This document shows positions 6,397-47,323 of a stretch of 48,293 nucleotides of DNA, piece by piece (position 1 is the first letter of the stretch; each line of letters begins with the position of its first letter). The notes under the pieces were generated by a model that was not told where the DNA came from, searched no databases, and was given only the letters and a program-made list of their open reading frames with translations. Position numbers and translations under genes: made by a program. Source of the stretch: Fidelibacterota bacterium (GTDB taxonomy: Bacteria > Fidelibacterota > UBA2242); NCBI GenBank assembly GCA_049975265.1, contig JBNGDF010000018.1:1-48293 (forward strand), in the 5' to 3' direction.

Positions 6397-8235
6397 ATGA
6401 AAAAATTTCCCAAACCAACGACGCTATTGCTTTTAATTTTTGGGTTAATAAATGATTTCCATTGTGCCAGCGAAGGTGGTCTCGATACAGTCCCCGACTG
6501 GGCTGCAGATGTTGTCTGGTATCAGATTTTTCCGGAACGATTCCGCAACGGCGATCCTGGCAATGACCCGACTATTGAGACTCTCGACGGGACCTGGCCG
6601 TATGAGAAGCAAACGGAATGGGCAATCACTCCGTGGACGTCCGATTGGTATAAACTGCAACCCTGGGAGAAGGGAAATGGGCGGGGTTTTTATTACAATG
6701 CCCAACTGCGGCGCTATGGCGGAGATATTCAGGGAATTATCGATAAACTGGACTATCTTCAGGAGTTGGGTGTCAATGCACTTTACCTGAATCCGGTTTT
6801 TGAATCTGCCTCGTCTCATAAATACGGTGCCACCATGTACCATCATATTGATAATAATTTCGGTCCCGATCCGGAGGGTGACATTAGAATCTGGAATTTG
6901 GAAACACCGGACGATCCGGCGACCTGGCGCTGGACTGCAGCGGACAGGCTCTTTTTGAAGCTGATCGATGAAGTCCATCAACGGGATATGAAAATTATAA
7001 TCGATGGTGTTTTTAACCATGTTGGCATTCCTTTCTGGGCATTTCAGGATGTAAAACAGAAGGGCAAAAAGAGTAAATATCTGGATTGGTTTATTATCAA
7101 GTCCTTTGATAATCCGCACACAAAGAAGGACGAATTCGACTATCAGGGTTGGTATGGAGTCATGGATTTGCCGGAAATCCGGGAAAATAAAAACGGTCCC
7201 TGTGATTCTTTCCGGGAGCATATTCAGGCGGTTGTACACCGCTGGATGGACCCGAATGGTGACGGGAACCCGGAAGACGGTATTGACGGTTGGCGGCTGG
7301 ATGTGGCGGAAATGGTCAGTAAAGAGTTCTGGCGGGATTTCCGCCGGTGGGTACGCGGGATCAATCCGGAAGCCTATCTGACTGGTGAGATTTGGTGGGA
7401 AAATTTTTCTGAAAATATAATGTTCGATGCGTCACCGTGGCTGCAGGGTGACATTTTCGACGCTGTGATGAATTACCGTTTCGCCGACGCTATGCTGAAA
7501 GCCTGTGTAGATAAAGAAATGCAGATCCGTCCCACTCAGTTGGATAATCTGCTTGGATTCGTACGGAGAAAGTACCCTCAACCGAATCAGCAGGTGCTGA
7601 TGAATTTGATGGGCAGTCACGACACCGAGCGTTTTGCTTCCATGGTGATCAATCCCGACCGTTGGATCGATCATGCGTCCAATCTGAATTACGATGAGGA
7701 ATTTGAGATCAGAAAACCGATGGAAGAAGAACGAGAAGTTCAGAAACTGATTCTCGCCTTTCAATTCTGCTATCCTGGTGCTCCCTATATCTATTATGGT
7801 GATGAGGTGGGTATGTGGGGCGCCGATGATCCCGATTGCCGCAAACCGATGGTCTGGGAAGATTATCAATACGAACCGGAAACCCATCACCCCTTTGGAC
7901 AGCCACGCCCTGTCGATTCGGTAGAGGTCAATAGAGATCTGCTGGAATACTACCGGCAGCTGATCCGGATACGGAAAGATCACCCGGCGCTTAGACGCGG
8001 AGAATACGAGACAGTCTATACCATTGATGATTCCCAGATTTTTGTATTTGAAAGGAGTTACCGGTCAGATAAAATTCGGGTGGCATTTAATTTTTCTGAA
8101 GAGATCCAGTCGGTGCCTGTTGAAAAATGCCTTGGTGATGATCAGGAATCCTGGCGCTTAATTCATGGAGAGATTCGTGATTTTGCTGCCATACCACCTA
8201 AATCTTTTGGAATATACAAGCGAGGAAATGATTAA
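6397..8235 (+). CDS. GH13 alpha-amylase family (neopullulanase/cyclomaltodextrinase-like), exported
   Basis: VWYQIFPERFRNGDP, YGGDIQGIIDKLDYLQELGVNALYLNP; conserved regions DGVFNH, GWRLDVA, GEIW, GSHD; YYGDEVGM..ADDPDCR; N-terminal signal-like sequence. Confidence 0.93.
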   Translation: MKKFPKPTTLLLLIFGLINDFHCASEGGLDTVPDWAADVVWYQIFPERFRNGDPGNDPTIETLDGTWPYEKQTEWAITPWTSDWYKLQPWEKGNGRGFYYNAQLRRYGGDIQGIIDKLDYLQELGVNALYLNPVFESASSHKYGATMYHHIDNNFGPDPEGDIRIWNLETPDDPATWRWTAADRLFLKLIDEVHQRDMKIIIDGVFNHVGIPFWAFQDVKQKGKKSKYLDWFIIKSFDNPHTKKDEFDYQGWYGVMDLPEIRENKNGPCDSFREHIQAVVHRWMDPNGDGNPEDGIDGWRLDVAEMVSKEFWRDFRRWVRGINPEAYLTGEIWWENFSENIMFDASPWLQGDIFDAVMNYRFADAMLKACVDKEMQIRPTQLDNLLGFVRRKYPQPNQQVLMNLMGSHDTERFASMVINPDRWIDHASNLNYDEEFEIRKPMEEEREVQKLILAFQFCYPGAPYIYYGDEVGMWGADDPDCRKPMVWEDYQYEPETHHPFGQPRPVDSVEVNRDLLEYYRQLIRIRKDHPALRRGEYETVYTIDDSQIFVFERSYRSDKIRVAFNFSEEIQSVPVEKCLGDDQESWRLIHGEIRDFAAIPPKSFGIYKRGND

Positions 8236-9913
8236 AGCGCATATCTTTGCGGGATTGCTTTTATTGGCGGCTATTGCGGGGTGTGATCGCAAACCGGCAC
8301 CTGCCAATCTGCTTGCTCGGGTAGAAGATCGTCAGGTCACGGTTGAAGATTACACGACGCGGTATATCGATTTTCTAAGAAAGACCGGGATAAATGATAA
8401 TCTGAAAGTCCGGCATGATTTTTTAAAAACACTGGTAAATGAGGCGGTTATCCTTGAATACGCACGACAGAAGCAGATTCATAAGGAGCCGGAGTTGCAG
8501 ACCCGGCTACAGAATAAATGTGAACAGCTGTATCTGGATTATTATTACGAAAATTACATCTATCCACAATTAACTATATCGGAAGCAGAATTACGGGAAG
8601 CCTTTCGTCGATCGAAAATTCGGTTACACGCGCGACACCTGTATGCTCCCACACTGGATGCGGCATTTGCGATTCGCAAGCAGTTAAATCAGGGAAAAAG
8701 CTTCGAATCGTTAGCCCGGGAGCTGTTCAACGATCCGACACTAGCATCCAATGGCGGTGATCTGGGCTGGTTCAGTTATGATGAGATGGATCCGAATTTT
8801 GAAGATGCGGCATATTCGATGCAGGTGGGCGAGATTTCCGAGCCGGTAAAGACCAGTGACGGCTACAGCATCATTCAGCTGCTGGATGCAGAGATAGACC
8901 CCTTTATTACAGAATCCGATTATGCAAAGAATGAAAAATGGTTGCAGTTGCAGGTGAAGCGGCGCAAGCATGCCCGTTTTCTGGAGGCTAAAACAGACGA
9001 AATCCTGGCTCAATTGGAGCTGCAGTTTGATCCGGGTGGCTTAGAGCAGCTAATTCAACATTTTCCACTGATTCGGTCGCAAATTCTCGATGAAGCAGAT
9101 CTTATGGAATCCCACCCGGTCGAACCCGATGTGGTATTGCTAATCTCAAAAAATGGCAATTGGACCCTGCAGAAAGCAATCGTTAAGATGGCGGAACTGA
9201 ACCGCAAACAGTGGAACAGGATTCAGAACGAAGACGATCTGGTTCAGGCTATTACAGGACTTGTCATCCGGGAAGAAATCGAGCGGCGAATCGAAGAAAA
9301 AGAGATCAACAACCGACCGGATGTCATTCAACTGGCGAGTCAGAAACGAGATCATGTCATTCTGCAGTATATCGGAGAGAAATTACTGGATACATTGACG
9401 ATTTCTGAAGAGGTGCTTCGCGACTATTTTGAAGCACACCGGGATGAAATGGTATCATCAGAAAGGTATGAAATAGCGGAAATTGCAGTGCCCGATTCAT
9501 TAACGGCTGGGAGGCTTTGTGAGCGGTTGCGATCCGGTGCGGACTTTGGAGAATTGGCAAGGAGCTATTCTCAGAGTGAGCGCAGTTCGAGCCAGAATGG
9601 ATATCTAGGGTGGGGAACTTTGGAGCAATTTGGAAAATTGTCGGAAAAAATCAGAGGTTCGCGCACCGGTGATATTTTGGGACCAATTCGGTATTATGAC
9701 AAATATATGGTGCTGAAAGTGCTTGATGTCCATGAGCCGGTACCACTTGAATTCGACGATGCACGGAGGCTCATCGAGTCGCGGCTAAAACCGCAGGCGT
9801 TTCATGACGCATATTACCGAATAATGAATTCCGCTCGGACAGAATTAACCATTAAAATCGAGAGTGGCTTGGTTGATAAATTAAACATTGATATAAAACG
9901 GGGAAAATCATGA
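8228..9913 (+). CDS. Parvulin/PpiC-type peptidyl-prolyl isomerase lipoprotein (SurA/PrsA-like, two rotamase domains)
   Basis: Start re-called at ATG 8228 (GAGGAA RBS, overlaps the amylase stop); lipobox LLLAAIAG-C; SFESLAREL..SNGGDLGWF...GEISEPVKTSDGYSII and DFGELARSYS...NGYLGW. Confidence 0.88.
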   Translation: MIKAHIFAGLLLLAAIAGCDRKPAPANLLARVEDRQVTVEDYTTRYIDFLRKTGINDNLKVRHDFLKTLVNEAVILEYARQKQIHKEPELQTRLQNKCEQLYLDYYYENYIYPQLTISEAELREAFRRSKIRLHARHLYAPTLDAAFAIRKQLNQGKSFESLARELFNDPTLASNGGDLGWFSYDEMDPNFEDAAYSMQVGEISEPVKTSDGYSIIQLLDAEIDPFITESDYAKNEKWLQLQVKRRKHARFLEAKTDEILAQLELQFDPGGLEQLIQHFPLIRSQILDEADLMESHPVEPDVVLLISKNGNWTLQKAIVKMAELNRKQWNRIQNEDDLVQAITGLVIREEIERRIEEKEINNRPDVIQLASQKRDHVILQYIGEKLLDTLTISEEVLRDYFEAHRDEMVSSERYEIAEIAVPDSLTAGRLCERLRSGADFGELARSYSQSERSSSQNGYLGWGTLEQFGKLSEKIRGSRTGDILGPIRYYDKYMVLKVLDVHEPVPLEFDDARRLIESRLKPQAFHDAYYRIMNSARTELTIKIESGLVDKLNIDIKRGKS

Positions 9914-12651
9914 GACATTGGAAGGTCTGCGGACTGTTCATTCTGCTATTCGGGCTTATTTTTGTAAGTTTTGGCGGAACAACGGGTAAAATCACCGGGC
10001 AGGTTACCGATCAGGATACCGGAACACCGTTGTTCGGTGCCAATGTCATATTGAAGGGGACCTCAATGGGTGCGGCGACCAATGCGGAAGGTAAGTTTTT
10101 AATTTTGAACGTTCCGCCGGGAAGTTATAATTTGGAAATATCGATGATCGGTTATCAGAAACAGCTCCTGACCGATGTCCTGGTACAGATCGACCTGACC
10201 ACCCGCGTGACGATTGAACTGTCGTCCACAGTGCTGGAAGCCGGTGAAGCCGTGACCGTCATTGCCGAGCGACCGGTGATTCAGAAGGATAAAACATCTT
10301 CCGAGTCACGTGTCGGTGCTGAAGAGATTGAAGCCTTACCGGTTACGGAAGTTCGGGACCTGCTGGAGATGCAAAGCGGTGTCACCGTCGATGCGGGCGG
10401 CGGAATTCATATTCGCGGTGGTCGCTCTTCAGAAGTTGCTTATTGGGTTGATGGTCTCCCTGTTACCGATGCTTTTGACGGCAGTCAGGCGGTGACGGTT
10501 GAAAACGACGCCATTCAGGAGCTGCAGGTGATCAGCGGTACGTTTAATGCAGAGTATGGAAACGCCATGTCCGGGATTGTCAATATTGTTACGAAGGAGG
10601 GTGCTACAGAATACAAAGGCTCCATTTCAGCCTATCTGGGTGATTATATATCCTCGGATACAAAATTATATCGTAATATTGAAGAAATTAATCCGTTGCA
10701 CGAACGCAATCTCCAGCTCAACTTAGAGGGACCGATTCCATTGTTAAAAGAGAAACTAAGTTTCTTTACTTCCATTAAAAAAACCTATACCGACGGCTGG
10801 CTATACGGAATCGGCTATTTCAACATGTATGGCGATACTCTCGATGATGTCAAGAATGTTCCGATGAACTGGCGTGACCGCTTTACAACCAATACAAAGC
10901 TCACTTTCAAACCCTTAGCGAAACTGAAATTCCGCCTTTCTTATATGACCAGTGATGAGACCTACGAAATGTATGATCACTTTCTTCAGTATGTTCCCGA
11001 TGCGAATATGGAATATTATGACAAGGGACGCAATTTATCTCTCGGCATGACGCATACCCTTACTCAGAGAACATTTTACGAATTAAAGTTTTCATCCTTC
11101 TATAGCTATTATCAAGCCTGGCTGTTTGAGGATCCCCATGATCCGCGTTACATTGATCCATATTACTGGGAGCATCAGGAACGGGTGAACCCCTACTATT
11201 GGTTTACCGATCACAGCATCAATACCAATCGTTATGAACAATTTACCAATACGAATATTCTGAAATTTGATTTCACGTCCCAGGTGAACGATCTGAATCT
11301 GGTTAAATTGGGAATTGAGGCAAAGCAGCTCAACGGTGGTATTGATGCATTTGCCATCACGGATGATCTGGAATCCACGGATTCTGTTTTTACACCATAT
11401 ATACCCCGAAAAAATGTAGAAGGCAAAAAATTCGGTGATTTTTACCGTTACAGTTTCAATGTAAAACCCGAAGAGTATTCCGCCTACATTCAGGATAAAC
11501 TGGAATTTCAAAGCGTGATCATCAATCTGGGAATCCGGTGGGATTATTTTAATGCCAACGGCTACGTACCCGCCGATCCAAAGGAGCCGTACATCGACAA
11601 TCCCCGCAATCCCGCGCTGGATTCCTTGACACTGGAAGAGAAAGAGGCGATCTGGTGGAAGAAAACCACGGCGAAGCAGCAACTAAGTCCCCGTCTGGGC
11701 ATTGCCTATCCGATAACCGACAGGGGGGTGATTCATTTTTCTTTTGGACATTTCTTTCAGATACCACCCTATGGACTGCTCTATGCCAATCCGGGATATA
11801 AATTACCGGAAACCAGCGGCACTTACGGTATTTATGGTAATCCCGACATGAAACCGCAGAAAACCGTGATGTATGAACTGGGGGTTAATCAGGAAATCAT
11901 TACGGATCTGTATATTGATTTAACCGGTTTTTACCGGGATGTTCGGGATTGGGTTTCCACCGGTGTACCGATCGATATTGGTGGCGGTACCCAGTATATC
12001 ACCTATGAGAATAAGGACTATTCCAATGTTCGTGGTGTTGTCCTCTCCGTGGATAAGAAATATCACGATCATTACTGGTTTAATTTATCCTATACGTTTC
12101 AGATTGCAGAGGGTTCAAATTCGGATCCGGGGGATGCCTTTGGTGCTATCCAGGCGAATCGAGAACCGCGGAAATATATAATTCCGCTGAACTGGGATCA
12201 GCGTCATACTCTGAACGGTGCGTTTTATTATGGAAGCGACCGGTGGGGTGCCACCTTAAATGCGCGATTCGGCTCCGGTTATCCCTATACCCCCACGGTT
12301 ACTACGGCATCACGGCAGGGCGCCAATGTGTCGGTTCAGCCGGAAACCAATAGTCGCCGGGTTGCACCCACCTATGAGTTCGATTTAAAATTGCATCGAA
12401 AATTGAAACTGCTCGGAACGGAGATCATGGTGTATATGGATATTTTCAACCTATTGGATACTCGCAACGAAATCTATGTCTGGAGCAGCACCGGGCGGGC
12501 GGATTCGAGCATCGAGGAGCTGCAGGCGGATGAAACCAGCCGGGCGTATCTGGCGGATCAGCGGATCAACACTGTGGAAGAGTATTTCCGGCATGCCGAA
12601 TGGTATTATGCTCCCCGCAAAATCAATATCGGTTTTAAAATTTCATTCTGA
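9910..12651 (+). CDS. TonB-dependent receptor with N-terminal carboxypeptidase-regulatory-like domain
   Basis: GTTGKITGQVTD..TGTPLFGANV; plug IHIRGGRSSEVAYWVDG and ISGTFNAEYGNAMSGIVNIVTKEG; LSPRLGIAYPI, NPDMKPQKTVMYELG, FNLLD; C-terminal PRKINIGFKISF. Confidence 0.93.
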   Translation: MRHWKVCGLFILLFGLIFVSFGGTTGKITGQVTDQDTGTPLFGANVILKGTSMGAATNAEGKFLILNVPPGSYNLEISMIGYQKQLLTDVLVQIDLTTRVTIELSSTVLEAGEAVTVIAERPVIQKDKTSSESRVGAEEIEALPVTEVRDLLEMQSGVTVDAGGGIHIRGGRSSEVAYWVDGLPVTDAFDGSQAVTVENDAIQELQVISGTFNAEYGNAMSGIVNIVTKEGATEYKGSISAYLGDYISSDTKLYRNIEEINPLHERNLQLNLEGPIPLLKEKLSFFTSIKKTYTDGWLYGIGYFNMYGDTLDDVKNVPMNWRDRFTTNTKLTFKPLAKLKFRLSYMTSDETYEMYDHFLQYVPDANMEYYDKGRNLSLGMTHTLTQRTFYELKFSSFYSYYQAWLFEDPHDPRYIDPYYWEHQERVNPYYWFTDHSINTNRYEQFTNTNILKFDFTSQVNDLNLVKLGIEAKQLNGGIDAFAITDDLESTDSVFTPYIPRKNVEGKKFGDFYRYSFNVKPEEYSAYIQDKLEFQSVIINLGIRWDYFNANGYVPADPKEPYIDNPRNPALDSLTLEEKEAIWWKKTTAKQQLSPRLGIAYPITDRGVIHFSFGHFFQIPPYGLLYANPGYKLPETSGTYGIYGNPDMKPQKTVMYELGVNQEIITDLYIDLTGFYRDVRDWVSTGVPIDIGGGTQYITYENKDYSNVRGVVLSVDKKYHDHYWFNLSYTFQIAEGSNSDPGDAFGAIQANREPRKYIIPLNWDQRHTLNGAFYYGSDRWGATLNARFGSGYPYTPTVTTASRQGANVSVQPETNSRRVAPTYEFDLKLHRKLKLLGTEIMVYMDIFNLLDTRNEIYVWSSTGRADSSIEELQADETSRAYLADQRINTVEEYFRHAEWYYAPRKINIGFKISF

Positions 12652-12665
12652 TAGAGGTATAAATT

Positions 12666-15600
12666 ATGAAATTCATCAGATTCATTTCTTTTATCTTGAT
12701 ATCCGCACTGTTAGTCGCGCAGCACGTTCCCAGTAAGGAGCGCGGTGATCATAACTTTCGCCGACAGACAAACATCGACGGTAATAAAGTCCGGACCTCC
12801 ATTTTTAATTATGGTGTTACCGGGCGACCGGAAGCCGGGGCACAGTATGTGCCTTATGAATGGCCCAAGAATTCCGGTCAGCATTATATTGCCATGACTC
12901 AAATCTGGGTCGGCGCCGAAGTAGTATCGGAAAATGGCAATATAATCCGACTGGTTGATGTTGCCAACGGTCGGACCAATTCTGCTGGGGAGAGTCTGAA
13001 TTTCGAGCCGGTTCCCGGTTATTTGAATCCCGAATCGGACATGATTGCCAAAAGTGACGAGCCGGAGTCATGGCCTAGTTACTGGCCGGATAAATCCGAT
13101 GATGAAACCGATCCCGGCTGGACGGGGTCATGGAACGGTTATTTTGGCAAAGATCAGTTTAATTCCGATCAGGAGATCTATTTTAAGATTTCCGATGATC
13201 ATTATAAAAAATCCACTGTGACCTATTACCCCGATACCACCGATTTAAACCGTGGCGGTATCGGTATTCTGGCGGGCGTACGGGTGCTTGAATGGTCGCA
13301 GGTACTGGTTGAAGATGTGGTGTTTATACTGTACGAGATTCAGAATGATGGTACCGAGGATCTGGATAAGGTCTCTTTCAGTCTCTGGCTGGCAGATCTC
13401 GTCGGCGGTGACGGCGATACCGATGATGATTCGCCGGATTTCGATTTGCAGTATAATATCGCCTGGTGCAAGGACAGCGACGGAATCGGGAACGTGGAAT
13501 CTTTCGGCTCTGATCCGGTAGGTGTTGCCGCGGTTTCCTATCTTGAAACACCGGGTAACGCCCGGGATAGAATTGATAACGACGGCGACGGGGAGCCGAA
13601 CAGCCCGAAAGTGACCGCCGCCATGCTCGTCGGTGAAACCCACAACCGCATCGATGATAATGCCAATGGACTGGTGGATGAGGATAGCACTCATATTGCT
13701 TTTGGTGATTTCTCCGTTGGTGTCGGATTTGCCGACCGGATTGACAACGATTATGACGGGGAGTCTAACAGTCCGACAGTGACAGCCGCTATGGTCGAGG
13801 ATGCACGGACGGACAGATGGAACCGTTGGCCGCCGTTTCCGGAGAGTGATCCTTTTTCGCAGAATGTGGTCCACCTGATTGATGTGAAAGCAGAGGACCT
13901 GGGATGTAAATTCCGTGATTTTATTGATAACAATGACAATTCAGAGCTAGGGGGACCGGAAATTACGCAGGCAATGATTGATTCAGCCGCACTGGATTCA
14001 CCCTATTACCGCTACAAGGTGCCGGGAACGGCAATTATTCTTTACGATGTCAAAGATGAAGATATCGGTTGCCGCTACGCCGATGGTATCGATAATGACG
14101 GCGACGGTGCGGTTGACGAGGGCATTGATGAGAATATTGACGAAATGATTGATGAAAGCCGGGAAGACTTTATTGATAATGATGGTGATTGGGACCCGCT
14201 TTATGACGACGTGGGATTGGATGGTGCCTCCTATACCGGGGATCGCGGTGAAGGTGATGGCGTTCCCACTTCCGGCGCCGCAACCGATTTTCCCGGAGAA
14301 CCCAATATCGATAAGACCGACATTTCTGAATCTGACCAGATGGGTTTGACGTCGGTTGCCTATGACCGGGCGGGTTCCATTAATCTGGATTCCGACAATA
14401 ATTTATGGCGACTATATTTGACACCGGGAAAGTTCTGGCAGCCACCGCCCGGTGGTATTTCCGGTGATTACGATCTGTTTGTATCGTCAGGCTATTTCCC
14501 GCTGAAGTCGGGTCAAACTGAACGGATTTCCATGGCGGTTTGCCTTGGCGCCGACGAAGATGACGCCATTCGCAATATGCAGGTTGCACAGCGGACTTAT
14601 GATGAGGATTACCAATTCGCCAAACAGCCGATTCCACCCAATGTCACAGTGGTTGCCGGCGACGGTAAAGTTACACTCTACTGGGATGATGTAGCAGAGA
14701 GTTCCTTCGATTCCTATATGTTCGGAATTGGATCCCCGGGGTACGACTTTGAAGGGTACAAAGTCTTCAAGGCGACTGATACCGGCTTCAAAGATGCCCT
14801 GAAAATCACCGATGCCAGCGGTAATCTGACTTATTTAAAACCGATTTATCAGTGTGATCTGGTAGATGGACGGCAGGGCTATCATCCGGTCGACATAAAT
14901 GGGGTCAAATACAATCTTGGTTCCGATACAGGTATTTCGCATAGCTTTACTGATACCGATGTCCAGAATGGGCAGACCTATTATTATGCAGTTGTCTCCT
15001 ATGATTTTGGCGGGGATGCGACGAATAACATTCCCCCGACCGAGTGTAATATCAAACTTACGATCAATTCGGCAACCGGTGAAATCGAACAAAAAGGTCC
15101 CAATGTAGTTGTCGTGACGCCGGAAGCGCCGGCAGCCGGGTATGTGGAGGCAGACATTATCGATATCGATTTGGTATCGGGAATGACTACCAGTAAAATC
15201 GGATACCGAATCGTTGATCCGCTGAAAGTGCTGGATCAGCATACCTACCGGATCACTTTTGAAGATACCCTGAAGCCGAAAAAAGGAACCGGGATCGGTT
15301 ATGATACACTTGTTACCAAATCGTATACTCTTGAGGATGTCACTGATCGGGATGATCCCGATACGCTGGTTCTTCGCAACAGACAGTTTTATGCTGAGGA
15401 TGAGCAACCTATCATCGACGGCTGGCAGCTAACGTTTAATAATAAAAAACTGATTGATTTCAATATCAGTGAATCACACTGGAACCGCGACAGTCTTTGG
15501 CGCTTTGTGACGACTGTCTTTTCCCAATCTCTGACCATCGGGCGACCGATTGCGGCTGATTATCGGATAGAGATCGGGGATATTGGGACGGATTCGTCCA

Positions 15601-16325
15601 CCGCCTATACCGGTAATCTACCCTTTCTGGTTAAGTACGATGCCCAGGAGGTCAACTTTACTGTCAAGAAGCGGATTGCTTTAACCGGTGATGATGCAAC
15701 CGACTGGCAGACAATTCCCTTTGCTTTCGGTGATTTTTCTCCTCGTGGGTTCCCCGACGGTAAATTGAATGCCGATTCTGTCGAGAGCGACTGGGTTATC
15801 TTTTTGGATGACACAACCGAGACAGGTGAATTGAAGCCCACCTGGCGCTTTTCGCTTGATGCACCGCGACCGTCGGAGACCTATCGCAAATATCCGCCGC
15901 AAGCCGGTGACACTGCTTTTGTTGTGATCAATAAACCGTTTCTTTCCGGTGATGTTTTTGAATTTACCACCTTTACCTCCTATATCGATGAGGAGGCAGC
16001 GAAGTCGGATTTAAAGAGGATTAAAGTAGTACCGAATCCCTACGTGGCGGCGGCGACATGGGAATCGAAAAATCCTTTTGTCAGCGGGCGTGGTCCCCGT
16101 TCGATTCATTTTAACCATCTGCCGGCGGAGTGTACGATCCGGATATTTACGGTGTCCGGCGAGTTGGTCAAAATCATTGAACACAGTGCGCTTCTCAACG
16201 ATGGTTCTGAAGAGTGGGATTTGCTCACCCGGGACAATCTGTCTGCTTCATATGGAATTTACGTATATCATGTGGATGCGCCCGGGATCGGCGAACACGT
16301 AGGCAAATTTGCCATAATTAAATAG
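12666..16325 (+). CDS. Large secreted protein (1219 aa) with acidic DxDxDG-type repeats, Fn3-like domain and atypical T9SS-like C-terminal domain
   Basis: Signal peptide; repeated IDNDGDG/IDDNANGLVDE; AGDGKVTLYWD..FEGYKVFK..VQNGQTYYYAVVSYD; CTD KVVPNPY...IRIFTVSGELVK...WDLLTRDN..SYGIYVYHV..GKFAIIK. Confidence 0.82.
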   Translation: MKFIRFISFILISALLVAQHVPSKERGDHNFRRQTNIDGNKVRTSIFNYGVTGRPEAGAQYVPYEWPKNSGQHYIAMTQIWVGAEVVSENGNIIRLVDVANGRTNSAGESLNFEPVPGYLNPESDMIAKSDEPESWPSYWPDKSDDETDPGWTGSWNGYFGKDQFNSDQEIYFKISDDHYKKSTVTYYPDTTDLNRGGIGILAGVRVLEWSQVLVEDVVFILYEIQNDGTEDLDKVSFSLWLADLVGGDGDTDDDSPDFDLQYNIAWCKDSDGIGNVESFGSDPVGVAAVSYLETPGNARDRIDNDGDGEPNSPKVTAAMLVGETHNRIDDNANGLVDEDSTHIAFGDFSVGVGFADRIDNDYDGESNSPTVTAAMVEDARTDRWNRWPPFPESDPFSQNVVHLIDVKAEDLGCKFRDFIDNNDNSELGGPEITQAMIDSAALDSPYYRYKVPGTAIILYDVKDEDIGCRYADGIDNDGDGAVDEGIDENIDEMIDESREDFIDNDGDWDPLYDDVGLDGASYTGDRGEGDGVPTSGAATDFPGEPNIDKTDISESDQMGLTSVAYDRAGSINLDSDNNLWRLYLTPGKFWQPPPGGISGDYDLFVSSGYFPLKSGQTERISMAVCLGADEDDAIRNMQVAQRTYDEDYQFAKQPIPPNVTVVAGDGKVTLYWDDVAESSFDSYMFGIGSPGYDFEGYKVFKATDTGFKDALKITDASGNLTYLKPIYQCDLVDGRQGYHPVDINGVKYNLGSDTGISHSFTDTDVQNGQTYYYAVVSYDFGGDATNNIPPTECNIKLTINSATGEIEQKGPNVVVVTPEAPAAGYVEADIIDIDLVSGMTTSKIGYRIVDPLKVLDQHTYRITFEDTLKPKKGTGIGYDTLVTKSYTLEDVTDRDDPDTLVLRNRQFYAEDEQPIIDGWQLTFNNKKLIDFNISESHWNRDSLWRFVTTVFSQSLTIGRPIAADYRIEIGDIGTDSSTAYTGNLPFLVKYDAQEVNFTVKKRIALTGDDATDWQTIPFAFGDFSPRGFPDGKLNADSVESDWVIFLDDTTETGELKPTWRFSLDAPRPSETYRKYPPQAGDTAFVVINKPFLSGDVFEFTTFTSYIDEEAAKSDLKRIKVVPNPYVAAATWESKNPFVSGRGPRSIHFNHLPAECTIRIFTVSGELVKIIEHSALLNDGSEEWDLLTRDNLSASYGIYVYHVDAPGIGEHVGKFAIIK
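13560..14340 (+). repeat. Intragenic acidic, probably Ca2+-binding repeats
   Basis: RIDNDGDGEPNSPKVTAAM (DNA ~13571-13628) vs RIDNDYDGESNSPTVTAAM (~13739-13796); also FIDNNDNSELGGPEITQAM, GIDNDGDGAVDE, FIDNDGDW. Confidence 0.75.
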
Positions 16326-16334
16326 GTGCTTATT

Positions 16335-17363
16335 ATGGATATGAAGAAGCTGGGTTTCACTTTTTTGCTAATATTGACTGCATTGACGACGGTGCCCCTG
16401 GCGAAAACCGTGACAAAGACCGGTACGACCGCCGCCAAATTTCTGGCGATCGGAATCGGATCGAGAGCCAACGGCATGGGTGATGCCTTCACGGCAGTTG
16501 CAGATGATGGTACCGCTATGTACTGGAATCCTGCCGGGATTGCGCATCTGAACCGGATGGAGATAGTCAGCAATTACAGTCAGTGGATCGCCGATATCAA
16601 CCTAATGTATTTTGGGTTGGTACTGCCTTTTCAGCAGTACGGTACATTTGGCATCAATGCGACTCATCTGGCGGTAGGTGAGATGGAGGTCACCACCGAA
16701 GCCAATCCTGAAGGCACCGGTGAATTTTTTAATTCCGGCAGTTATGCGGTGGGGCTCAGTTATGCCAAAGTCCTGACCGACCGTTTTTCCATTGGCGGCA
16801 ATTTGAAGTACATCAATGAATATATCATGAACTCTTCCGCCGGGTCGGTGGCTCTGGACATCGGGACGCTCTTTTTCTCGCCGTTCTGGGGGATTCGGTT
16901 TGGTGCCAGTATCTCGAATTTCGGAGGCAAGATGCAGATGACCGGCGAGGATTTACTGGTTACCAAGGATATAGATGAAACCAAAGAGGGTAATAATGAG
17001 AGCGTAAATGCCTATTTAGCAACCGATAAATTCGACCTGCCTCTAATACTTCGTGTCGGTTTATCAGGAGATATTGGAAATTCGAAGTTTGTTCGCACTA
17101 CCTGGGCGATAGATGCCATTCATCCCAATGACAATTCCGAATATATCAATTTGGGGTTGGAAATTGGGCTGGCGAATGATCTGGTGGTTTTACGGGGAGG
17201 AGTAAAAGCGCTGTTTATGGATTATCGTGATGAGAATCTTTCGTTGGGCGGGGGATTGAATATCCCGCTTGCGAATCAAATAAAACTCCACGTGGATTAT
17301 GCCTACCAATCCTACCGCTATCTGGATCAGGTGCATAAGTACACGATGAGAATAGTGTTCTAA
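16335..17363 (+). CDS. PorV/PorQ (UPF0164)-family outer-membrane beta-barrel
   Basis: KTGTTAAKFLAIGIGSRANGMGDAFTAVADDGTAMYWNPAG N-terminal signature of the FadL-like PorV family; amphipathic strands; terminal Phe. Start uncertain (16326/16335/16341). Confidence 0.85.
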   Translation: MDMKKLGFTFLLILTALTTVPLAKTVTKTGTTAAKFLAIGIGSRANGMGDAFTAVADDGTAMYWNPAGIAHLNRMEIVSNYSQWIADINLMYFGLVLPFQQYGTFGINATHLAVGEMEVTTEANPEGTGEFFNSGSYAVGLSYAKVLTDRFSIGGNLKYINEYIMNSSAGSVALDIGTLFFSPFWGIRFGASISNFGGKMQMTGEDLLVTKDIDETKEGNNESVNAYLATDKFDLPLILRVGLSGDIGNSKFVRTTWAIDAIHPNDNSEYINLGLEIGLANDLVVLRGGVKALFMDYRDENLSLGGGLNIPLANQIKLHVDYAYQSYRYLDQVHKYTMRIVF

Positions 17364-17399
17364 CAGCAAGTTGTGTTTAACAAAAAAAGGAGAAACAAA

Positions 17400-19964
17400 A
17401 TGAAGAAAGTTGCAACAATCCTCATGCTCGTGGCTCTGGTGACGTTTGCGTTTGCGGATGTGAATGTCACTTTTCGACTTAATACGAGTGCAATGACGGA
17501 AGGGGTAACCGATTCCACCGCAATCATGCATGTCCGGGGTGAAATGAATAGTTGGGGAGACGGGAATCCTCTGACCAATGTAGGAGGCGATTACTGGGAA
17601 ACCACGATCCAGCTCACCGATGGCACCTACGGGTATAAGTTTACCTATACCGATGCCGTAACCGGTGCGGTTAAGTGGGAGGATGCGATCGGTAACCGAA
17701 GTGTGACCGTTGCCGGCGCGGATTTAGTAGTTGACCTGGCTTATTTTGATGATGTAGCACCCTATACGCCGACGGACAGTATTGATGTCTGGTTTCGGGT
17801 GAATATGGCTGGTGTACTGGATTATGACGGCACCAGTCCGGTTGGTGTACGTGGTTCAATTCCTCTGGATCCGACCTGGGAACATGCTGCAGAGCTGACC
17901 AAAGAAGGCGACACCGATTTTTATTCCGGGCTGGTCTCGTTTCCGAATTCTGATGCAGGAGACACGGTTGAGTACAAATTTGTCTGGGGACCGTTAGCCG
18001 GTTGGGATGGTGTCCACTGGGAATCACCCAAAAATGATTTACTAAATGGTAACCGTCACTTTATCCTTGGACCGGATACTACCCTGGCGTTCAAGTACTT
18101 TAGCGATGAACCGCCGGTGACCAATATTGATACCTTTGATGTTCGAATTGTGATGAATACGGCTACCATGGATAATATCACGGATTCAACCGCACTGTTT
18201 TTTGTCACCGGTAGTTATGACGGATGGGCTCATGATGATGACACCCTGACTCAGGTGGGTGACTATTGCTACAAGGATTTTCAGTTTGTTGGTCCGGCTG
18301 ATGGACTCGAGCTGGAATTTACCTTCTTCTATAAAATGCTGGCAACGATTGATCAGCAGAATTGGCAAGGTGGTAGCAATCTAAAACCTGTCGTAACATC
18401 TGATACTACATTAGTGTATTACTGGCAGAATGGAACAACACCGCCCTATACTCCAAGTGACAGCATTGATGTCTGGTTCCGGGTCAATATGGCTGGTGTG
18501 CCCGACTACGACGGCACCAGTCCGGTTGGTGTGCGCGGTTCCATTCCACTGGATCCGTCATGGGCAACGACCTTCGTATTGGATCAGGAAGGTGAAAGTG
18601 ATTACTATTCGGGTCACATGAAATTCCCGGTCGAAGATATCGGCGATACGATTCAGTACAAGTTTGTCTGGGGTGCAACATCCGGCTGGGATAATGTAAA
18701 TTGGGAATCACCCAAATATGATACCTGGCTGAATTCCGGTAATCGCTATTTCTTCGTGAATCAGGACACCACACTGGCGTTCAAGTACTTCAGTGACGAA
18801 CCGCCCACAGGTGTCAAACCACAGACCGCTTATGTAGTCTTCTCGGTGGATATGTCGGCGTATATCAGTCTGGGTATTTTCAGCGAAGCCAGGAAGGACT
18901 CCATGCAGATTCGGGGAACCTTCAACGGCTGGAATGACGGTGATCCGCTGAAATGTCAAATGACCAAGCAGCCGGGCACATCGATTTACTCGATTATTGC
19001 TGAAATTACCGATTTCCCTGGAAAAGAGATCGAGTACAAGTACTACATGAAAATGTCACAGGAATCGCTGGACTTCTGGGGAAATGCCGGTATCACCGAC
19101 ATCCATCCCGACTGGGGTTACGAGGTTCCGCCAACCCGTGGTGGTGGCAACCGCAAGATCGTATTCGAAGGTGACCCGAATGAATATCAGATACTGGATG
19201 TGGAAGCGTATAACGGTTTGCCTTTACAGGGGATAATTCCTGAGGGACATACCGTAGCGGTTACCTTCAGTATAGACATGAATAATGCACCTCTGTTCGA
19301 TCCGGCGACCGATTCGGTGCTGTTCTATTTCAAGGATGAATGGCAGGTCAATGCTCTCGGTCTGCGTGGTGAAACTCTGAAGTACACCGATGATAACAGC
19401 GATGGTATATATGATATCACGATTGATTTCGTCGGACCCACTGCTTATACCCTGATCTATACGGTTGGTTTTGTGGGACCTGAGAATTCCATCGAGGAAG
19501 GCGGCGGTTTTGAATTTGGTCGTTTCCGCTGCCGTTATATCCAGCCGACGACGATAGACCCGGTAAGCTGGCCTACGGCATATGCGACGCCGATGGACAC
19601 CTTTACCGAGGATCCGCCGCTTGATGTTGAGAACCCGCCGCTGGGCATTCTCAAGATCAATGATGAAGGTTTGGATATGCCGGAGAAATTTGCCCTTTCT
19701 CAGAATTATCCGAATCCTTTCAACCCCACTACTTCAATCCGTTTTACGGTACCCCGGTCCGAGATTGTAACACTGACGATTTACAATATGCTGGGGCAAG
19801 CGATTGTAAAAGAGATCTACAGCAGTCTGAATGCCGGACACTATTCCTTCGTCTGGAATGGTCGCGATATGTCCGGTAATCCGGTTGCCTCGGGCGTTTA
19901 CTTCTATGAATTAAATGCCGACAACCAATTCCGTGATATCAAGAAAATGGTTCTGATGAAATAG
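17400..19964 (+). CDS. Non-catalytic multi-module carbohydrate(starch)-binding protein with FlgD-Ig/T9SS-type CTD
   Basis: Start re-called at ATG 17400 (AAGGAG RBS, MKKVATILML signal peptide). About six modules of the pattern V.F.VNM...RG..xxW...Y(E/Q)YKF...WE...NR (CBM20/CBM48-like). CTD FALSQNYPNPFNPTT...WNGRDMSGNPVASGVYFY..KKMVLMK. Confidence 0.8.
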   Translation: MKKVATILMLVALVTFAFADVNVTFRLNTSAMTEGVTDSTAIMHVRGEMNSWGDGNPLTNVGGDYWETTIQLTDGTYGYKFTYTDAVTGAVKWEDAIGNRSVTVAGADLVVDLAYFDDVAPYTPTDSIDVWFRVNMAGVLDYDGTSPVGVRGSIPLDPTWEHAAELTKEGDTDFYSGLVSFPNSDAGDTVEYKFVWGPLAGWDGVHWESPKNDLLNGNRHFILGPDTTLAFKYFSDEPPVTNIDTFDVRIVMNTATMDNITDSTALFFVTGSYDGWAHDDDTLTQVGDYCYKDFQFVGPADGLELEFTFFYKMLATIDQQNWQGGSNLKPVVTSDTTLVYYWQNGTTPPYTPSDSIDVWFRVNMAGVPDYDGTSPVGVRGSIPLDPSWATTFVLDQEGESDYYSGHMKFPVEDIGDTIQYKFVWGATSGWDNVNWESPKYDTWLNSGNRYFFVNQDTTLAFKYFSDEPPTGVKPQTAYVVFSVDMSAYISLGIFSEARKDSMQIRGTFNGWNDGDPLKCQMTKQPGTSIYSIIAEITDFPGKEIEYKYYMKMSQESLDFWGNAGITDIHPDWGYEVPPTRGGGNRKIVFEGDPNEYQILDVEAYNGLPLQGIIPEGHTVAVTFSIDMNNAPLFDPATDSVLFYFKDEWQVNALGLRGETLKYTDDNSDGIYDITIDFVGPTAYTLIYTVGFVGPENSIEEGGGFEFGRFRCRYIQPTTIDPVSWPTAYATPMDTFTEDPPLDVENPPLGILKINDEGLDMPEKFALSQNYPNPFNPTTSIRFTVPRSEIVTLTIYNMLGQAIVKEIYSSLNAGHYSFVWNGRDMSGNPVASGVYFYELNADNQFRDIKKMVLMK
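17761..18807 (+). repeat. Intragenic duplication of a ~120-aa binding module
   Basis: PYTPTDSIDVWFRVNMAGVLDYDGTSPVGVRGSIPLDP...YKFVWG...WESPK...TTLAFKYFSDEPP (~17761-18116) recurs almost identically at ~18445-18807; many DNA differences are at third codon positions. Confidence 0.9.
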
Positions 19965-20050: not shown

Positions 20051-21877
20051 ATGCATACGATAGATTATACGATTGTCATATTTTATATGGTCGGTTTGGT
20101 GGTAATCGGAATGTGGTTTCAGCGCAAAGCAGCGCAGGGGATCGATTCCTATTTCCTGGGTAACCGCAATCTGCCCTGGTGGGCGCTGGGTGCATCGGGG
20201 ATGTCTTCCAACCTTGACATCAGTGGTACCATGATCATCGTGGCGCTGGTCTATGCGATTGGTGCCCGGGGATTTTATATTGAAATCCGGGGTGGTGTTA
20301 CGCTGATCATGGCATTTCTGATGATTTATATGGGCAAGTGGAACAGACGCGCCGGAGTCATGACTCTGGCGGAGTGGATGAAGTTTCGCTTTGGCGATGA
20401 CAGAGAGGGTAAACTGGCGCGTTTCATTACCGCCGTCACGTCATTAATTATGACGATTGCCATGATTACCTATTTTGCCATCGGTGGTGGCAAATTTTTA
20501 GACCAGTTTCTGGGAATTCCCTCTATGTTGGGATTGCCGTCGGAGTTCTGGGCAGCGGCGGTATTGATTTCCATTGCCATGATCTATACCGTTGCTTCGG
20601 GATTGTATGGTGTGATCTGGACGGACGTTTTTCAGGGGACCCTGATATTTCTGGCGATTGCCTATGTCGTTGTGCAGGCTTTGAAAATTGATCTGCCGAA
20701 TGAATTTCTGGTATCCATGCCGCTGAAGGAGGTCGCCGGTGGCGGTTATAAAGCGTATCTGACCTCTTTTAAGGAATGGACAGCCGTGGTACCGAAGTGG
20801 CATCTGGGCATTGATCCCAATTCGGTCTACTCCATGTATAATCTCTTCGGCATAGCGATCATGTTTTATCTATTCAAAACCGTGATAGAGGGTAGCGGCG
20901 GTACCGGTAACTATATGATTCAGCGTTACTTTGCTGCTAAAAGTGACCGGGAGGCGGGATTGTTATCGCTGTTCTGGACGTTTTTGTTATCCTTTCGCTG
21001 GCCCTTTATCGGTGCCCTGGCGGTTTGGGGTGTATCGCTGGCGACGCAAATCAGCGATCCGGAGATGGTATTGCCTGTCGTTGTAGCGACACTGCCAGTC
21101 GGTATTAAAGGATTTTTAATTGCCGGTTTAATGGCTGCCGCCATGTCCACTTTCGACTCCACCGTCAATGCCGGAGCGGCATACTGGGTTAAGGATATCT
21201 ATCTGGAATATGTTAATCCTGACGCCGACCACAAAAGACAGATGAAACAGAGTTATCTGGCTTCGATTTTAATTGTGTTAATCGGTCTGGGGCTGATGCT
21301 GGTCATTAGGAATATTAATGAAATCTGGGGTTGGATTACCATGAGCATTGGTGCGGGTATGATTATCCCGCAGCTGATCCGCTGGTACTGGTGGCGTTTG
21401 AATGGATACGGCTACGCCATCGGGATGGCAAGCGGAACGATAACGGCGGTTATCTGGAAAATCCTGGCACCGGAGGGAACGGCGGAATATTTTGCTTTTA
21501 TCGTCTCCGCGGGTATGTCGTTTGTCGGCACAATCATCGGGACGCTTCTGACTGAGCCAACGGATGAGAAGGTGCTCAGAAATTTTTACCGGATCACCCG
21601 ACCTTTCGGATTCTGGTCACAAATACGGTCTCATTTTTCCGACAATTTTTTGAATAAAATCAAACAGGAAAATCGGCGGGATATCTTCTCCATCTTTTTT
21701 GCCGTACCCTGGCAGTGTTGCCTTTTTCTGATGTGGCTGATGCTGGCAATGAAACGATTTGACAATTTTATTGTTTTACTGGTGATTACAGTTCTTTTGT
21801 CGATAGTCCTGTATTTTTCATGGTTTAGGCATTTATCAACTGAGGTTCGGGAGGACGCGGAAACGGAGAAATTATGA
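20051..21877 (+). CDS. Sodium:solute symporter (SSS) family sugar transporter
   Basis: SYFLGNRNLPWWALG.S, YTVASGLYGVIWTDVFQ, QRYFAAKS, GLMAAAMSTFDSTVN, RWYWWRLN; many TM helices. Confidence 0.92.
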   Translation: MHTIDYTIVIFYMVGLVVIGMWFQRKAAQGIDSYFLGNRNLPWWALGASGMSSNLDISGTMIIVALVYAIGARGFYIEIRGGVTLIMAFLMIYMGKWNRRAGVMTLAEWMKFRFGDDREGKLARFITAVTSLIMTIAMITYFAIGGGKFLDQFLGIPSMLGLPSEFWAAAVLISIAMIYTVASGLYGVIWTDVFQGTLIFLAIAYVVVQALKIDLPNEFLVSMPLKEVAGGGYKAYLTSFKEWTAVVPKWHLGIDPNSVYSMYNLFGIAIMFYLFKTVIEGSGGTGNYMIQRYFAAKSDREAGLLSLFWTFLLSFRWPFIGALAVWGVSLATQISDPEMVLPVVVATLPVGIKGFLIAGLMAAAMSTFDSTVNAGAAYWVKDIYLEYVNPDADHKRQMKQSYLASILIVLIGLGLMLVIRNINEIWGWITMSIGAGMIIPQLIRWYWWRLNGYGYAIGMASGTITAVIWKILAPEGTAEYFAFIVSAGMSFVGTIIGTLLTEPTDEKVLRNFYRITRPFGFWSQIRSHFSDNFLNKIKQENRRDIFSIFFAVPWQCCLFLMWLMLAMKRFDNFIVLLVITVLLSIVLYFSWFRHLSTEVREDAETEKL

Positions 21878-22707
21878 ATGAAATACCCGAAGAGCTTTTG
21901 GGGAAACTGATTAAACTGGGTTTTACCAATTATGAAGCCAGAACCTATCTGGGACTACTGCGGAGCAATCCGGCAACCGGTTATGAAGTCAGCCAGCAAA
22001 CCGATGTACCCCGCTCGGTGATCTATTCGATTCTCAGAAAATTGGAATCCATGGGGGTCGTCGTTTCGATTCACGACAAACCCCGTCGTTATATACCGCT
22101 CTCACCAAAGCAGCTGCTCTCATTGCTGGAATCCGATTTTTCAAAGCGTATCAGTTCGCTGAAAGAGGACCTGATCAATTTCAATAATAAACCGGAGTCC
22201 GAAGGGTTTTGGAATATTCGGGGCTATGAATCGCTGATGGAGCTCTGTTCTTCGCTGATCAATGAAACCACGGAATCGATCTATTTATCGGGGTGGAAAC
22301 GTGAAATTGAACAGCTGAAACCGGAGTTGCTGATTGCAAAAAAGCGAGATATAGACATTATCATTTTCTCTTTTACAGAGGTTGATGGAGATTTTGGCGA
22401 GACCTTTGCCTATGGGATCAGTGATGCAAAGCTGGCGAAGTTTTGGGACCCGAAACTGATCCTGGTCACCGATTCAAAAAATCTGGTCATGGGTTCGGCG
22501 AATATGGACGACGATCAGCAGGCGATCTGGACCCAGAATCGGGCGGTGATTACAATTGCGATTAATTACCTGATTCTCGATATAACCCTGTTTGGACAGC
22601 GTAAAAATATTGACGTTTCAAATACGGTTATGAAGCTCATGACAGAAAAGGTCGATCATCTGGATCAGCTGATCGAAGAAACGAATCAGAAAAATAAAAG
22701 CAAATAA
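21874..22707 (+). CDS. TrmB-family transcriptional regulator
   Basis: LGFTNYEARTYLGLL..PATGYEVSQQTDVPRSVIYSILRKLESMG (TrmB wHTH), FWNIRG, C-terminal effector domain. Confidence 0.88.
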   Translation: MNEIPEELLGKLIKLGFTNYEARTYLGLLRSNPATGYEVSQQTDVPRSVIYSILRKLESMGVVVSIHDKPRRYIPLSPKQLLSLLESDFSKRISSLKEDLINFNNKPESEGFWNIRGYESLMELCSSLINETTESIYLSGWKREIEQLKPELLIAKKRDIDIIIFSFTEVDGDFGETFAYGISDAKLAKFWDPKLILVTDSKNLVMGSANMDDDQQAIWTQNRAVITIAINYLILDITLFGQRKNIDVSNTVMKLMTEKVDHLDQLIEETNQKNKSK

Positions 22708-22733
22708 TCCAGATAAATAGGGCACTACTCATT

Positions 22734-28200: not shown

Positions 28201-28878
28201 TTGAACGAACTGATTGCGATTGTGGATGACGAGCCGGATATTCTCGAACTGGTTACGATTCATCTGGAAAAAGCCGGGTATCGGACAGAGAAATTTACCC
28301 AGGCTGGCAAGTTGCTCTTTTATCTGGAAAATCAGCAGCCCGATCTGCTGATTCTGGACCTGATGCTGCCCGATCTGGACGGCATTGAAGTGTGCAAACG
28401 TCTGAAACAGGATAAGCGGACAGCGCTTGTACCGATTATCATGCTGACGGCGAAAGGGGATGAATTCGATCGTATCCTGGGTTTGGAACTGGGCGCTGAT
28501 GACTATATTACCAAGCCCTTTTCTGTCCGGGAACTGGTCGCCCGGGTCAAAGCGGTGCTGCGCCGAAACACGGCATCGGAGCAGAAGGACATCGTCCGGC
28601 TACATGACGATCTGGTGGTGGATTTACAGCGCTATGCGGTCTATGTCGACGATACCGAGGTTCATTTGACGATCACGGAATTCAATCTTCTGAAGCAGCT
28701 GATTACCAGACCAGGTTGGGTTTATTCCAGAGAGCGGCTGCTCAAGGGTTTATGGGGTGATGAAAAAATTGTTATTCCGCGTACCATCGATGTTCATATT
28801 CGGCATTTACGAACAAAATTGGGCAACGCCGGACGGTATATTAAGAATATCCGGGGAGTGGGCTACAAGCTGGAATGA
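28201..28878 (+). CDS. phoB: OmpR/PhoB-family response regulator (PhoB/PhoP-like)
   Basis: IVDDE, LDLMLPDLDG, MLTAKG.E.DRILGLELGADDYITKPFS, RTIDVHIRHLR, IRGVGYK; coupled to a PhoR-like kinase. Confidence 0.8.
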   Translation: MNELIAIVDDEPDILELVTIHLEKAGYRTEKFTQAGKLLFYLENQQPDLLILDLMLPDLDGIEVCKRLKQDKRTALVPIIMLTAKGDEFDRILGLELGADDYITKPFSVRELVARVKAVLRRNTASEQKDIVRLHDDLVVDLQRYAVYVDDTEVHLTITEFNLLKQLITRPGWVYSRERLLKGLWGDEKIVIPRTIDVHIRHLRTKLGNAGRYIKNIRGVGYKLE

Positions 28879-30620: not shown

Positions 30621-30738
30621 TTCCTTTCCTAATTTCATTTCATTATAGCATAACCGGCAGGACCGACCCGCGGCTACATGTCGGCGTGGTGGAAAAACTT
30701 CTCCGCAGCACCTTCCGCATACTAAAAATAAAGCGATC

Positions 30739-30781
30739 TTAATGATCTGTTTACACCTTGTTTACATCGCAGAGTTAATAT
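30739..30781 (+). promoter_or_regulatory. Pho-box-like triple direct repeat plus -10 upstream of the TBDR
   Basis: TTAATG (30739), TTTACA (30750), TTTACA (30761) with an exact 11-bp period (TGTTTACA twice); TAATAT at 30776-30781. Confidence 0.7.
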
Positions 30782-30842
30782 TGGTCGACTTTAGAAGAGT
30801 TAATGTTCATTTCCAACACAAAACGCAAAGGGAAGAGACGAG

Positions 30843-33782: not shown

Positions 33783-33806
33783 CCTGAAATTGTAAGGAGG
33801 ATTTTC

Positions 33807-47320: not shown

Positions 47321-47323
47321 AGC

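Follow-up and report, generated by a model that had tools for sequence, protein, structure and literature searches.

A TonB-dependent receptor, a predicted secreted protein with a PorZ-like C-terminal domain and a PorV/PorQ-family barrel form a recurrent gene trio in Marinimicrobia and related bacteria

PorZ's C-terminal domain (CTD) is retained and bound to the barrel PorQ (PMC10202324, PMC12365241), and it has been hypothesized that cognate PorV-like barrels shield CTDs from cleavage (PMC10202324). For type IX secretion system (T9SS) cargo with a type B CTD, PorP/SprF barrels have been proposed to act as both shuttle and anchor (PMC12618676, PMC9143113). Here, we describe a gene for a 1219-residue protein, called X, in a 48,293-nucleotide stretch of DNA (the window; contig JBNGDF010000018.1 of assembly GCA_049975265.1) from a Fidelibacterota (Marinimicrobia) bacterium. 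The gene stands between one for a TonB-dependent receptor (TBDR) and one for a β-barrel of the PorV/PorQ family. TBDR, X and barrel together are the unit here and make up a real, widespread and apparently undescribed module. In the model that we favour, with a probability of about 0.62, X is exported through SprA, its tail is held by its own barrel and its N-terminal domain (N-domain) lies against the TBDR.

Linkage of receptor, X and barrel

In this genome, each of the ten X genes lies within 8 kb of both a barrel gene and a TBDR gene of one subfamily. Members of this subfamily have both X and a barrel within 8 kb in 10/10 cases, whereas 0/13 other TBDR-like matches have either. A PorV-like gene directly follows 8/10 X tails but only 4/86 other CTD proteins (Fisher p = 1.5e-7, counted over paralogues that are not independent). 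The two remaining X genes comprise one with a peptidyl-prolyl isomerase (PPIase) gene before the barrel and one in a rearranged cluster. All four non-X proteins before a barrel have atypical tails, and no canonical PNPFN-type CTD protein is among them. Four pairs of an atypical-tail protein and a PorV-like barrel directly after it (L015:5224-7438, L009:1286-4173, L013:2400-5829 and L012:3201-9106) have no TBDR directly before them; they include one near sprA with two tandem barrels, and a PorU-like protein followed by a PorV2-like barrel, not a canonical PorV.

The same arrangement recurs in the best 80 loci from a scan of GTDB genomes that gave at least 585 relatives. These 80 loci are biased to close relatives and come from Marinimicrobia, Ignavibacteria, KSB1, Calditrichota and others. 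Among X genes with downstream room, 77/85 are followed by a barrel, and six more loci are ordered TBDR–barrel–X; 58/67 X genes come directly after the TBDR. For proteins with an ordinary type A CTD in these loci, the counts are 0/69 followed by a barrel and 0/66 directly after a TBDR. A hand count across the whole genomes of five relatives gave 23/35 X genes with the barrel directly next and 33/35 with it within 10 kb. The initial annotation of the window, made from the sequence, had suggested measuring with a profile of the X tail how often its matches are followed by a PorV-like gene and preceded by a TBDR; the linkage found is strong, and the tails neither cluster with ordinary type A CTDs nor lack enrichment for adjacent barrels.

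The tail of X and its barrel

The C-terminus of X reads ...IKVVPNPYVAAATWESKNPFVSGRGPRSIHFNHLP...WDLLTRDNLSASYGIYVYHVDAPGIGEHVGKFAIIK. The four comparison proteins of the window (17373/17400, 22734, 33807 and 42259) have PNPFN...SGxY tails, and three of them exceed the cut-off of the type A model TIGR04183 (41.4, 52.2 and 35.6 bits versus 23); the 22734 protein matches PF18962/FlgD_ig (among NCBIfam models, the best 25 families were considered). The window's own X tail matches neither TIGR04183 nor PF18962 at E ≤ 1. A profile built from X and 120 listed homologues retrieves ten tails in this genome at 51–192 bits, with the next match at 35. Motif counts in 115 trio X proteins and the 86 other CTD proteins of this genome differ sharply: P[ND]PY occurs in 103/115 versus 1/86, FxxLP in 107/115 versus 1/86 and W[DN][LM] in 93/115 versus 2/86, whereas PNPFN occurs in 2/115 versus 73/86. 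A terminal K/R strand is present in 97/115 trio X tails. The motifs conserved in type A tails are reported to serve mostly to define the fold rather than to touch the translocon (PMC10994853), a result that calls for caution in taking motif differences as specificity.

The tree, the model matches and the structural match all lead to PorZ, and the X tail is therefore an offshoot of the type A fold that resembles PorZ and does not belong to type B. Of 109 tails placed in a FastTree, 25 from X proteins join that of PorZ on one branch (support 97), apart from the 83 others. The PorZ model is matched by 10/10 X tails of this genome at E ≤ 1 (best 3.4e-8). The predicted tail, of about seven strands, has PorZ 5m11 as its best Foldseek match (E = 4.8e-5), with the CTDs of RemZ and PorU also found, and VIA-align superposes it on PorZ with Z 11.8 and a root-mean-square deviation (rmsd) of 2.3 over 92 aligned residues at 26% identity. 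The window encodes PorZ itself (open reading frame (ORF) 39807–42212; NF052228, 265 bits, cut-off 260), which ends in GKIAIVRK; its gene comes directly after riboflavin synthesis genes. CHU_C is matched by 6/10 X tails (best E = 0.0037), and nine NCBIfam families have a match at E ≤ 1, with no type C family among them. Type B membership was rejected: TIGR04131 matches only 1/10 X tails (E = 0.035), and there is no PorP/SprF match (TIGR03519) in this genome or in G026, with two positive controls (G188, G164) matching. In the ESM Atlas, the tail falls into unnamed clusters or ones with 11–43% type A/CHU_C members. A loop after VPNPY, modelled at low confidence, is specific to X tails and is a candidate recognition element.

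The range of proteins that carry the tail is narrow. Among 156 complete X-tail proteins in the loci studied, 142 share the same N-domain, which is found in 0/136 type A proteins of the same loci. The initial annotation had noted that this tail is unlike the four ordinary CTDs, resembles the end of PorZ and is directly followed by a PorV-family gene; sequence and family scores agree, and the Foldseek, VIA-align and PorZ model matches bear out the likeness. Its idea of a separate CTD class holds for the distinct branch and the sharp motif differences, but the tail is not found on a range of unrelated cargos.

The trio barrel scores 192 bits on the PorV/PorQ family model NF033709 (cut-off 90), and all ten trio barrels of this genome score 155–215 bits. 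Orthology to PorV (77 bits on NF033710, cut-off 250) and to PorQ (96 bits on NF033711, cut-off 220) was rejected. The genome has 18 PorV-like genes at E < 1e-3, among them a canonical PorV candidate (C6:29015-30301, 184 bits) that groups at 100 with PorV-type sequences and a PorQ candidate (C1:193080-194183, 140 bits) on another branch than the trio barrels. In a 41-row IQ-TREE, 21 trio barrels make up one side of a branch (support 80), and PorV-type (100), PorQ-type (96) and PorV2-type (94) sequences are separate, each with its own member from this genome. A 102-row FastTree of 62 of the 142 X-adjacent barrels, kept after thinning, and 40 others agrees (support 93), although two outsiders, both on long branches, are placed with the trio barrels. 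The trees used FastTree and LG+G4, with reference labels taken from NCBIfam scores and from genomes taken as Bacteroidia-like (SusD-rich; two with GldM and PorP). The trio barrels form a group of their own, in keeping with the dedicated PorV paralogue proposed at the outset. A 0.97-Mb single-contig genome (G067; L128:4366-11836) also encodes a complete trio, in which the tail is extended at its C-terminus and the barrel shares a well-supported sub-branch with those of G121 and G122. Streamlined genomes of one genus, including G067, have exactly one X tail each, possibly a core copy.

Natural tail swaps separate the tail from the rest of X. The N-domain family comprises 8060 clusters at E ≤ 1e-3 and 4069 at E ≤ 1e-10, including type-A-tailed forms and fragments; the best 150 representatives have an X tail in 66 cases, an ordinary type A tail in 47 and neither in 37 (mostly fragments). 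Gene context was compared for 49 N-domain homologues, nine found through a type-A-tailed alignment and 40 hand-picked, partly for unusual length; two truncated proteins (L284, L290) were dropped. Searches with the type-A-tailed alignment scored only 2–5 candidates per genome and therefore undercount. Among type-A-tailed homologues, 0/12 have a barrel nearby and 0/12 have this TBDR, whereas 33/37 X-tailed homologues have an adjacent barrel and 35/37 have the TBDR upstream. The four X-tailed proteins without a barrel are one at a contig end, one tandem copy and two before a type A protein. The N-domain tree contains seven changes for a type A tail (five on starred branches), one of them inside the window's own clade. 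The barrel is absent when the tail is swapped and therefore tracks the tail, not the rest of X. Two further N-domain homologues have a dockerin-like tail in place of the CTD (P0207, PF00404; P0177, similar by eye).

Co-divergence offers a second view of the trio. When patristic distances are compared over 72 complete trios, those of the tail, the N-domain, the barrel and the TBDR correlate at 0.87–0.92, values also expected from co-duplication alone. Partial correlations in 42 thinned trios are 0.58 for tail–barrel, 0.62 for N-domain–TBDR and 0.57 for barrel–TBDR, with −0.09 for tail–TBDR and −0.03 for N-domain–barrel; over all 72 trios the values are 0.40, 0.62, 0.48, 0.11 and 0.08, respectively. 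Such values would be expected if the three proteins form one complex, but they are suggestive only, because the tail–barrel and N-domain–TBDR pairs are also physically adjacent gene ends. The co-evolution of CTD and barrel anticipated in the initial annotation thus finds a correlate in the value of 0.58, but one confounded by adjacency and co-duplication.

Body of X, export and a model for the trio

X has no Pfam or NCBIfam match at E ≤ 0.01, and no Pfam domain was found in the 120 homologues listed. Its homologues account for 3705 matches among 7991 scored candidates, and the named ones are from Marinimicrobia or unassigned bacteria of the Fibrobacteres–Chlorobi–Bacteroidetes (FCB) group. The AlphaFold2 model of residues 20–1219 (63-row alignment; mean predicted local distance difference test 84.8, predicted template modelling score 0.76) is β-rich, with a longest helix of 16 residues. 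In VIA-align, the N-domain reaches Z 19.5 with dextran dextrinase 9ju0 and 19.0 with glucoamylase 1lf6 (rmsd ~3, 8% identity), and it also aligns with phosphorylases of the glycoside hydrolase (GH) families GH94 and GH65 and with galactose mutarotases, over the β domain only. Its Asp-rich insertion has 48 Asp in 261 residues and four DxDxDG-type motifs, at 304, 330, 360 and 476, which, judged by their sequence, likely bind Ca. Foldseek with the whole model returns only fibronectin type III (FN3)-type matches with low template modelling (TM) scores, a hidden Markov model (HMM) of the N-domain finds no PDB sequence at E ≤ 10, and the N-domain of an X paralogue falls into unnamed ESM Atlas clusters only. 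The modelled fold is compatible with sugar binding and proves none. A glycoside hydrolase role was rejected: only the β domain aligns, and the model has no helical (α/α)6 catalytic barrel of the GH15/GH94/GH65 kind. The lipobox pattern is found in 0/115 trio X proteins. One X paralogue and one trio TBDR of this genome (C5:69171-72147 and C5:39770-42404) are each split into several frames, which may reflect either sequencing error or decay.

In the proposed mechanism, X would be exported by Sec and then by the SprA translocon. Its tail would stay uncleaved and be received by the cognate barrel as the PorZ tail is by PorQ. The barrel would sit beside the TBDR, and the N-domain of X would cap the receptor and hand over the ligand; X would be a lipid-free lid or capture partner of the importer, here probably for starch fragments. 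Binding between tail and barrel is the step in which we place good confidence, and contact between X and the TBDR appears likely to a lesser degree; X may bind a ligand and starch may be the substrate.

The barrel might, however, be a dedicated carrier and anchor of X, in the way that PorQ serves PorZ, while X works independently of the TBDR: X would be an adhesin, a scaffold or an enzyme that is simply co-expressed in the operon. All of the tail–barrel evidence fits this equally well, the type-A-tailed homologues without a TBDR (0/12) indicate that the N-domain can function away from the importer, and the same fold is the N-domain of GH15/GH94/GH65 enzymes and occurs in mutarotases. Yet in this genome the TBDR subfamily never occurs without X, the TBDR is kept when gene order changes and the N-domain follows the TBDR more closely than it follows the barrel. 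We consider a role apart from the receptor unlikely.

This genome and 5/5 relatives tested have SprA. The genome also has its own PorZ, a PorU-like protein, PorV-, PorQ- and PorV2-like barrels and ~96 CTD proteins, ~86 of them ordinary CTD cargos. GldM was not detected in this genome, G026 or G121, with the positive controls G188 and G164 matching; this genome and G026 combine SprA with no detected GldM. The T9SS here has a motor that is absent or highly divergent. Without a detected GldM, X might be exported by the neighbouring TBDR or barrel rather than by SprA, or be periplasmic, and a TBDR required for protease secretion provides a precedent (PMC6434023). The T9SS CTD fold of the X tail, the SprA genes and the ordinary cargos, which imply a working T9SS, make this extremely improbable.

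Several observations weigh against the model of an SprA-exported X held by its barrel against the TBDR, in addition to the missing GldM and the limits on co-divergence given above. In the 80 loci, 39/66 type A proteins directly follow the barrel. The X gene of G047 lies on a contig without a barrel, and no barrel is adjacent to L293, L298 or two tails of G123 C22. The type A model TIGR04183 weakly matches 9/10 X tails (best E = 5.4e-6), and the tail tree used only 107 columns, with PorZ on a long branch. Support for the trio barrel group is moderate, at 80–93. The swap test contains only five well-supported independent pairs, none in the opposite direction (sign test, median p = 0.0625), and 8/12 of its type A proteins were chosen for that tail. 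X and SusD occur together in 37/121 Bacteroidota genomes.

Some of these points would suit an X tail that is a drifted ordinary type A CTD handled by canonical PorV together with PorU. In that case the barrel would have another job, as partner of the TBDR or carrier of the downstream type A cargo, and the linkage would be that of an inherited operon. The weak TIGR04183 matches, the type A cargos that follow barrels, the near-confinement of the tail to one protein family, the barrel–TBDR partial correlation of 0.57 and the fact that this genome has both a candidate for the canonical PorV and a PorU-like protein all favour this explanation. It is made quite improbable by the tail swaps, each of which, in five to seven events, lacks a barrel, by the six order-flipped loci in which X stays beside the barrel, by a tail that tracks the barrel and not the TBDR, and by the atypical tails of the four non-X proteins that precede a barrel, none of them a canonical PNPFN-type CTD.

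Locus, distribution and comparison with known systems

The trio is embedded in a run of genes (Table 1) that are all on the plus strand and separated by short gaps, from the GH13 gene at 6397 to the type A GH13 gene at 22734. The barrel ORF opens at the base after the X stop codon, with a likely ATG at 16335 or 16341. Because of the gene families present, this run is likely a starch or α-glucan locus. Within the 80 related loci, an upstream GH13 homologue is found in 23/39 orthologous trio loci compared with 2/41 other loci, and a PPIase homologue in 32/39 orthologous loci. One locus with the orthologous trio, L039, comes from a cultured Melioribacter strain. Genes for parvulin-type PPIases are found repeatedly, either immediately before the TBDR, as at 8165–9913 of the window, or between X and barrel (L003:12010-13398), and possibly encode a dedicated folding helper. 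The TrmB-type regulator (21874–22707) resembles archaeal sugar-sensing TrmB. Paralogous trios neighbour GH5, GH3/carbohydrate-binding module (CBM) family 9, GH88/GH43, glycerophosphodiesterase/phosphatase or peptidase genes, and their substrates therefore likely differ, non-sugars included.

Table 1 Features of the trio locus in the window
Feature	Position	Strand	Evidence
GH13 α-amylase-family enzyme, upstream of the trio	6397–8235	+	PF00128
Parvulin-type PPIase (SurA/PrsA-like), overlaps TBDR start	8165–9913	+	PF00639
TBDR, 913 aa: CarboxypepD_reg-like N-terminal extension, plug, barrel	9910–12651	+	PF13715, PF07715, PF00593
Protein X (1219 aa), predicted to be a secreted partner at the surface; has a signal peptide but no lipobox	12666–16325	+	No family match
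X: predicted galactose-mutarotase-like β-supersandwich (~residues 20–300 and 560–650) with Asp-rich insertion (~300–560)	12723–14615	+	Model, VIA-align
X: β-rich stalk, FN3/immunoglobulin (Ig)-like domains likely	14616–15992	+	DSSP of model; FN3-containing Foldseek matches, low TM
X: atypical T9SS CTD, PorZ-like (VPNPY, 12–20-residue loop, FxxLP, WDL, GxY, GKFAIIK)	15993–16322	+	Alignment, Foldseek, VIA, tree, motif counts
PorV/PorQ-family β-barrel, trio-specific group, not canonical PorV	16326–17363	+	NF033709, 192 bits; trees
CBM20-like starch-binding repeat protein, ordinary type A CTD, likely start 17400	17373–19964	+	PF00686 (E = 1.8e-10), TIGR04183
Sodium:solute symporter, TrmB-type regulator, GH13 amylase with type A CTD (22734)	20051–25598	+	PF00474, PF01978, PF00128

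Farther along the window, 28201–35348 holds a PhoB/PhoR-like two-component pair and a second TBDR of another subfamily. Directly behind this TBDR comes a protein of 513 aa that ends in an ordinary type A tail; there is no barrel, and the two may be a different type of TBDR–partner pair. The end of the window (46001–48293) has a GC content of 0.33 compared with ~0.47 elsewhere, contains two ORFs, of which one is unassigned and the other weakly matches M10 peptidases, and is possibly acquired DNA.

The X tail was found in 121/121 sampled Marinimicrobia genomes, with 1 to 29 matches each and exactly one in 1-Mb streamlined genomes, in 69/121 sampled Bacteroidota, and also in Ignavibacteria, KSB1 and Calditrichota. 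No SusD match was found in this genome (95% complete), and X and eight paralogues have no Pfam match, to SusD domains or otherwise. Homology of X to SusD was rejected on that count and on the β-rich model and the lack of a lipobox. Among the 121 Bacteroidota, whose kin are not independent, 17/18 genomes with at least eight SusD matches have no X, and 20/36 genomes with at least five X have no SusD (a SusD count of 17 per genome stands for at least 17). Strict mutual exclusion was rejected on the 37 genomes that have both.

If the model is correct, it names the main polymer-capture route of Marinimicrobia, Ignavibacteria, KSB1 and Calditrichota, many of them without SusD, ties the T9SS directly to TonB uptake and gives a function to thousands of unannotated clusters (the 4069 above). 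Carriers of the X tail are common in the carbon cycle of marine and subsurface settings. The natural cognate pairs and tail swaps also make a testable hypothesis of the idea that PorV-like barrels protect CTDs from PorU cleavage. More tentatively, and at somewhat less than even odds, we propose an undescribed, lipid-free alternative to SusCD in FCB bacteria other than Bacteroidia, in which a barrel docked on the TBDR holds a T9SS-exported lid by its retained PorZ-like tail. There would be up to ~29 such trios per genome, each specific in barrel and substrate; swaps to type A would have repeatedly freed the lid, and the T9SS would work without a recognizable GldM motor.

The initial annotation had taken type B cargo with PorP/SprF as its model. 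The likeness is that a single barrel gene comes directly after each cargo gene, with a proposed role as shuttle and anchor; the tail family and the barrel family are both different, no TIGR03519 match was found in this genome, and X is essentially one protein family of cargo, linked to a TBDR. PorZ–PorQ is the better precedent. Like PorZ–PorQ and PorU–PorV, the trio pairs a type-A-related CTD with a cognate PorV/PorQ-family barrel, and PorZ is both the best structural match of the X tail and a model matched by all ten paralogues. X is, however, unrelated to PorZ outside the tail, the trio barrel lies below the PorQ and PorV cut-offs on a separate branch, and the X–barrel pair occurs in up to 29 copies per genome, tied to a TBDR.

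In SusC/SusD (RagA/RagB) loci, as here, the receptor gene is directly followed by that of a large partner. Trio loci likewise contain GH13, GH3, GH5, GH43, GH88 or peptidase genes, an inner-membrane transporter and a regulator, and X and SusD are largely complementary in distribution. The trio TBDR scores only 82 bits on the SusC model TIGR04056 (cut-off 368). SusD is a helical tetratricopeptide repeat protein; X would be anchored by a protein barrel, not by a lipid. Tethering of X to the surface by its barrel and a SusD-like role, both suggested in the initial annotation, would follow by analogy with these systems.

BamG–BamH of the Bacteroidota β-barrel assembly machinery (BAM) offers a further parallel, a 14-stranded FadL-like barrel on a larger barrel that holds a surface protein (PMC12611786). 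BamH, however, is a lipoprotein, and matches of the trio barrels to the BamG model are weak at best (27.8 bits, cut-off 250). In the open-access literature, searched by title and start of abstract, we found no description of a TBDR–X–barrel trio. Together, these comparisons suggest a trio that works like PorZ–PorQ for anchoring and probably like SusD for uptake, as a member of neither system.

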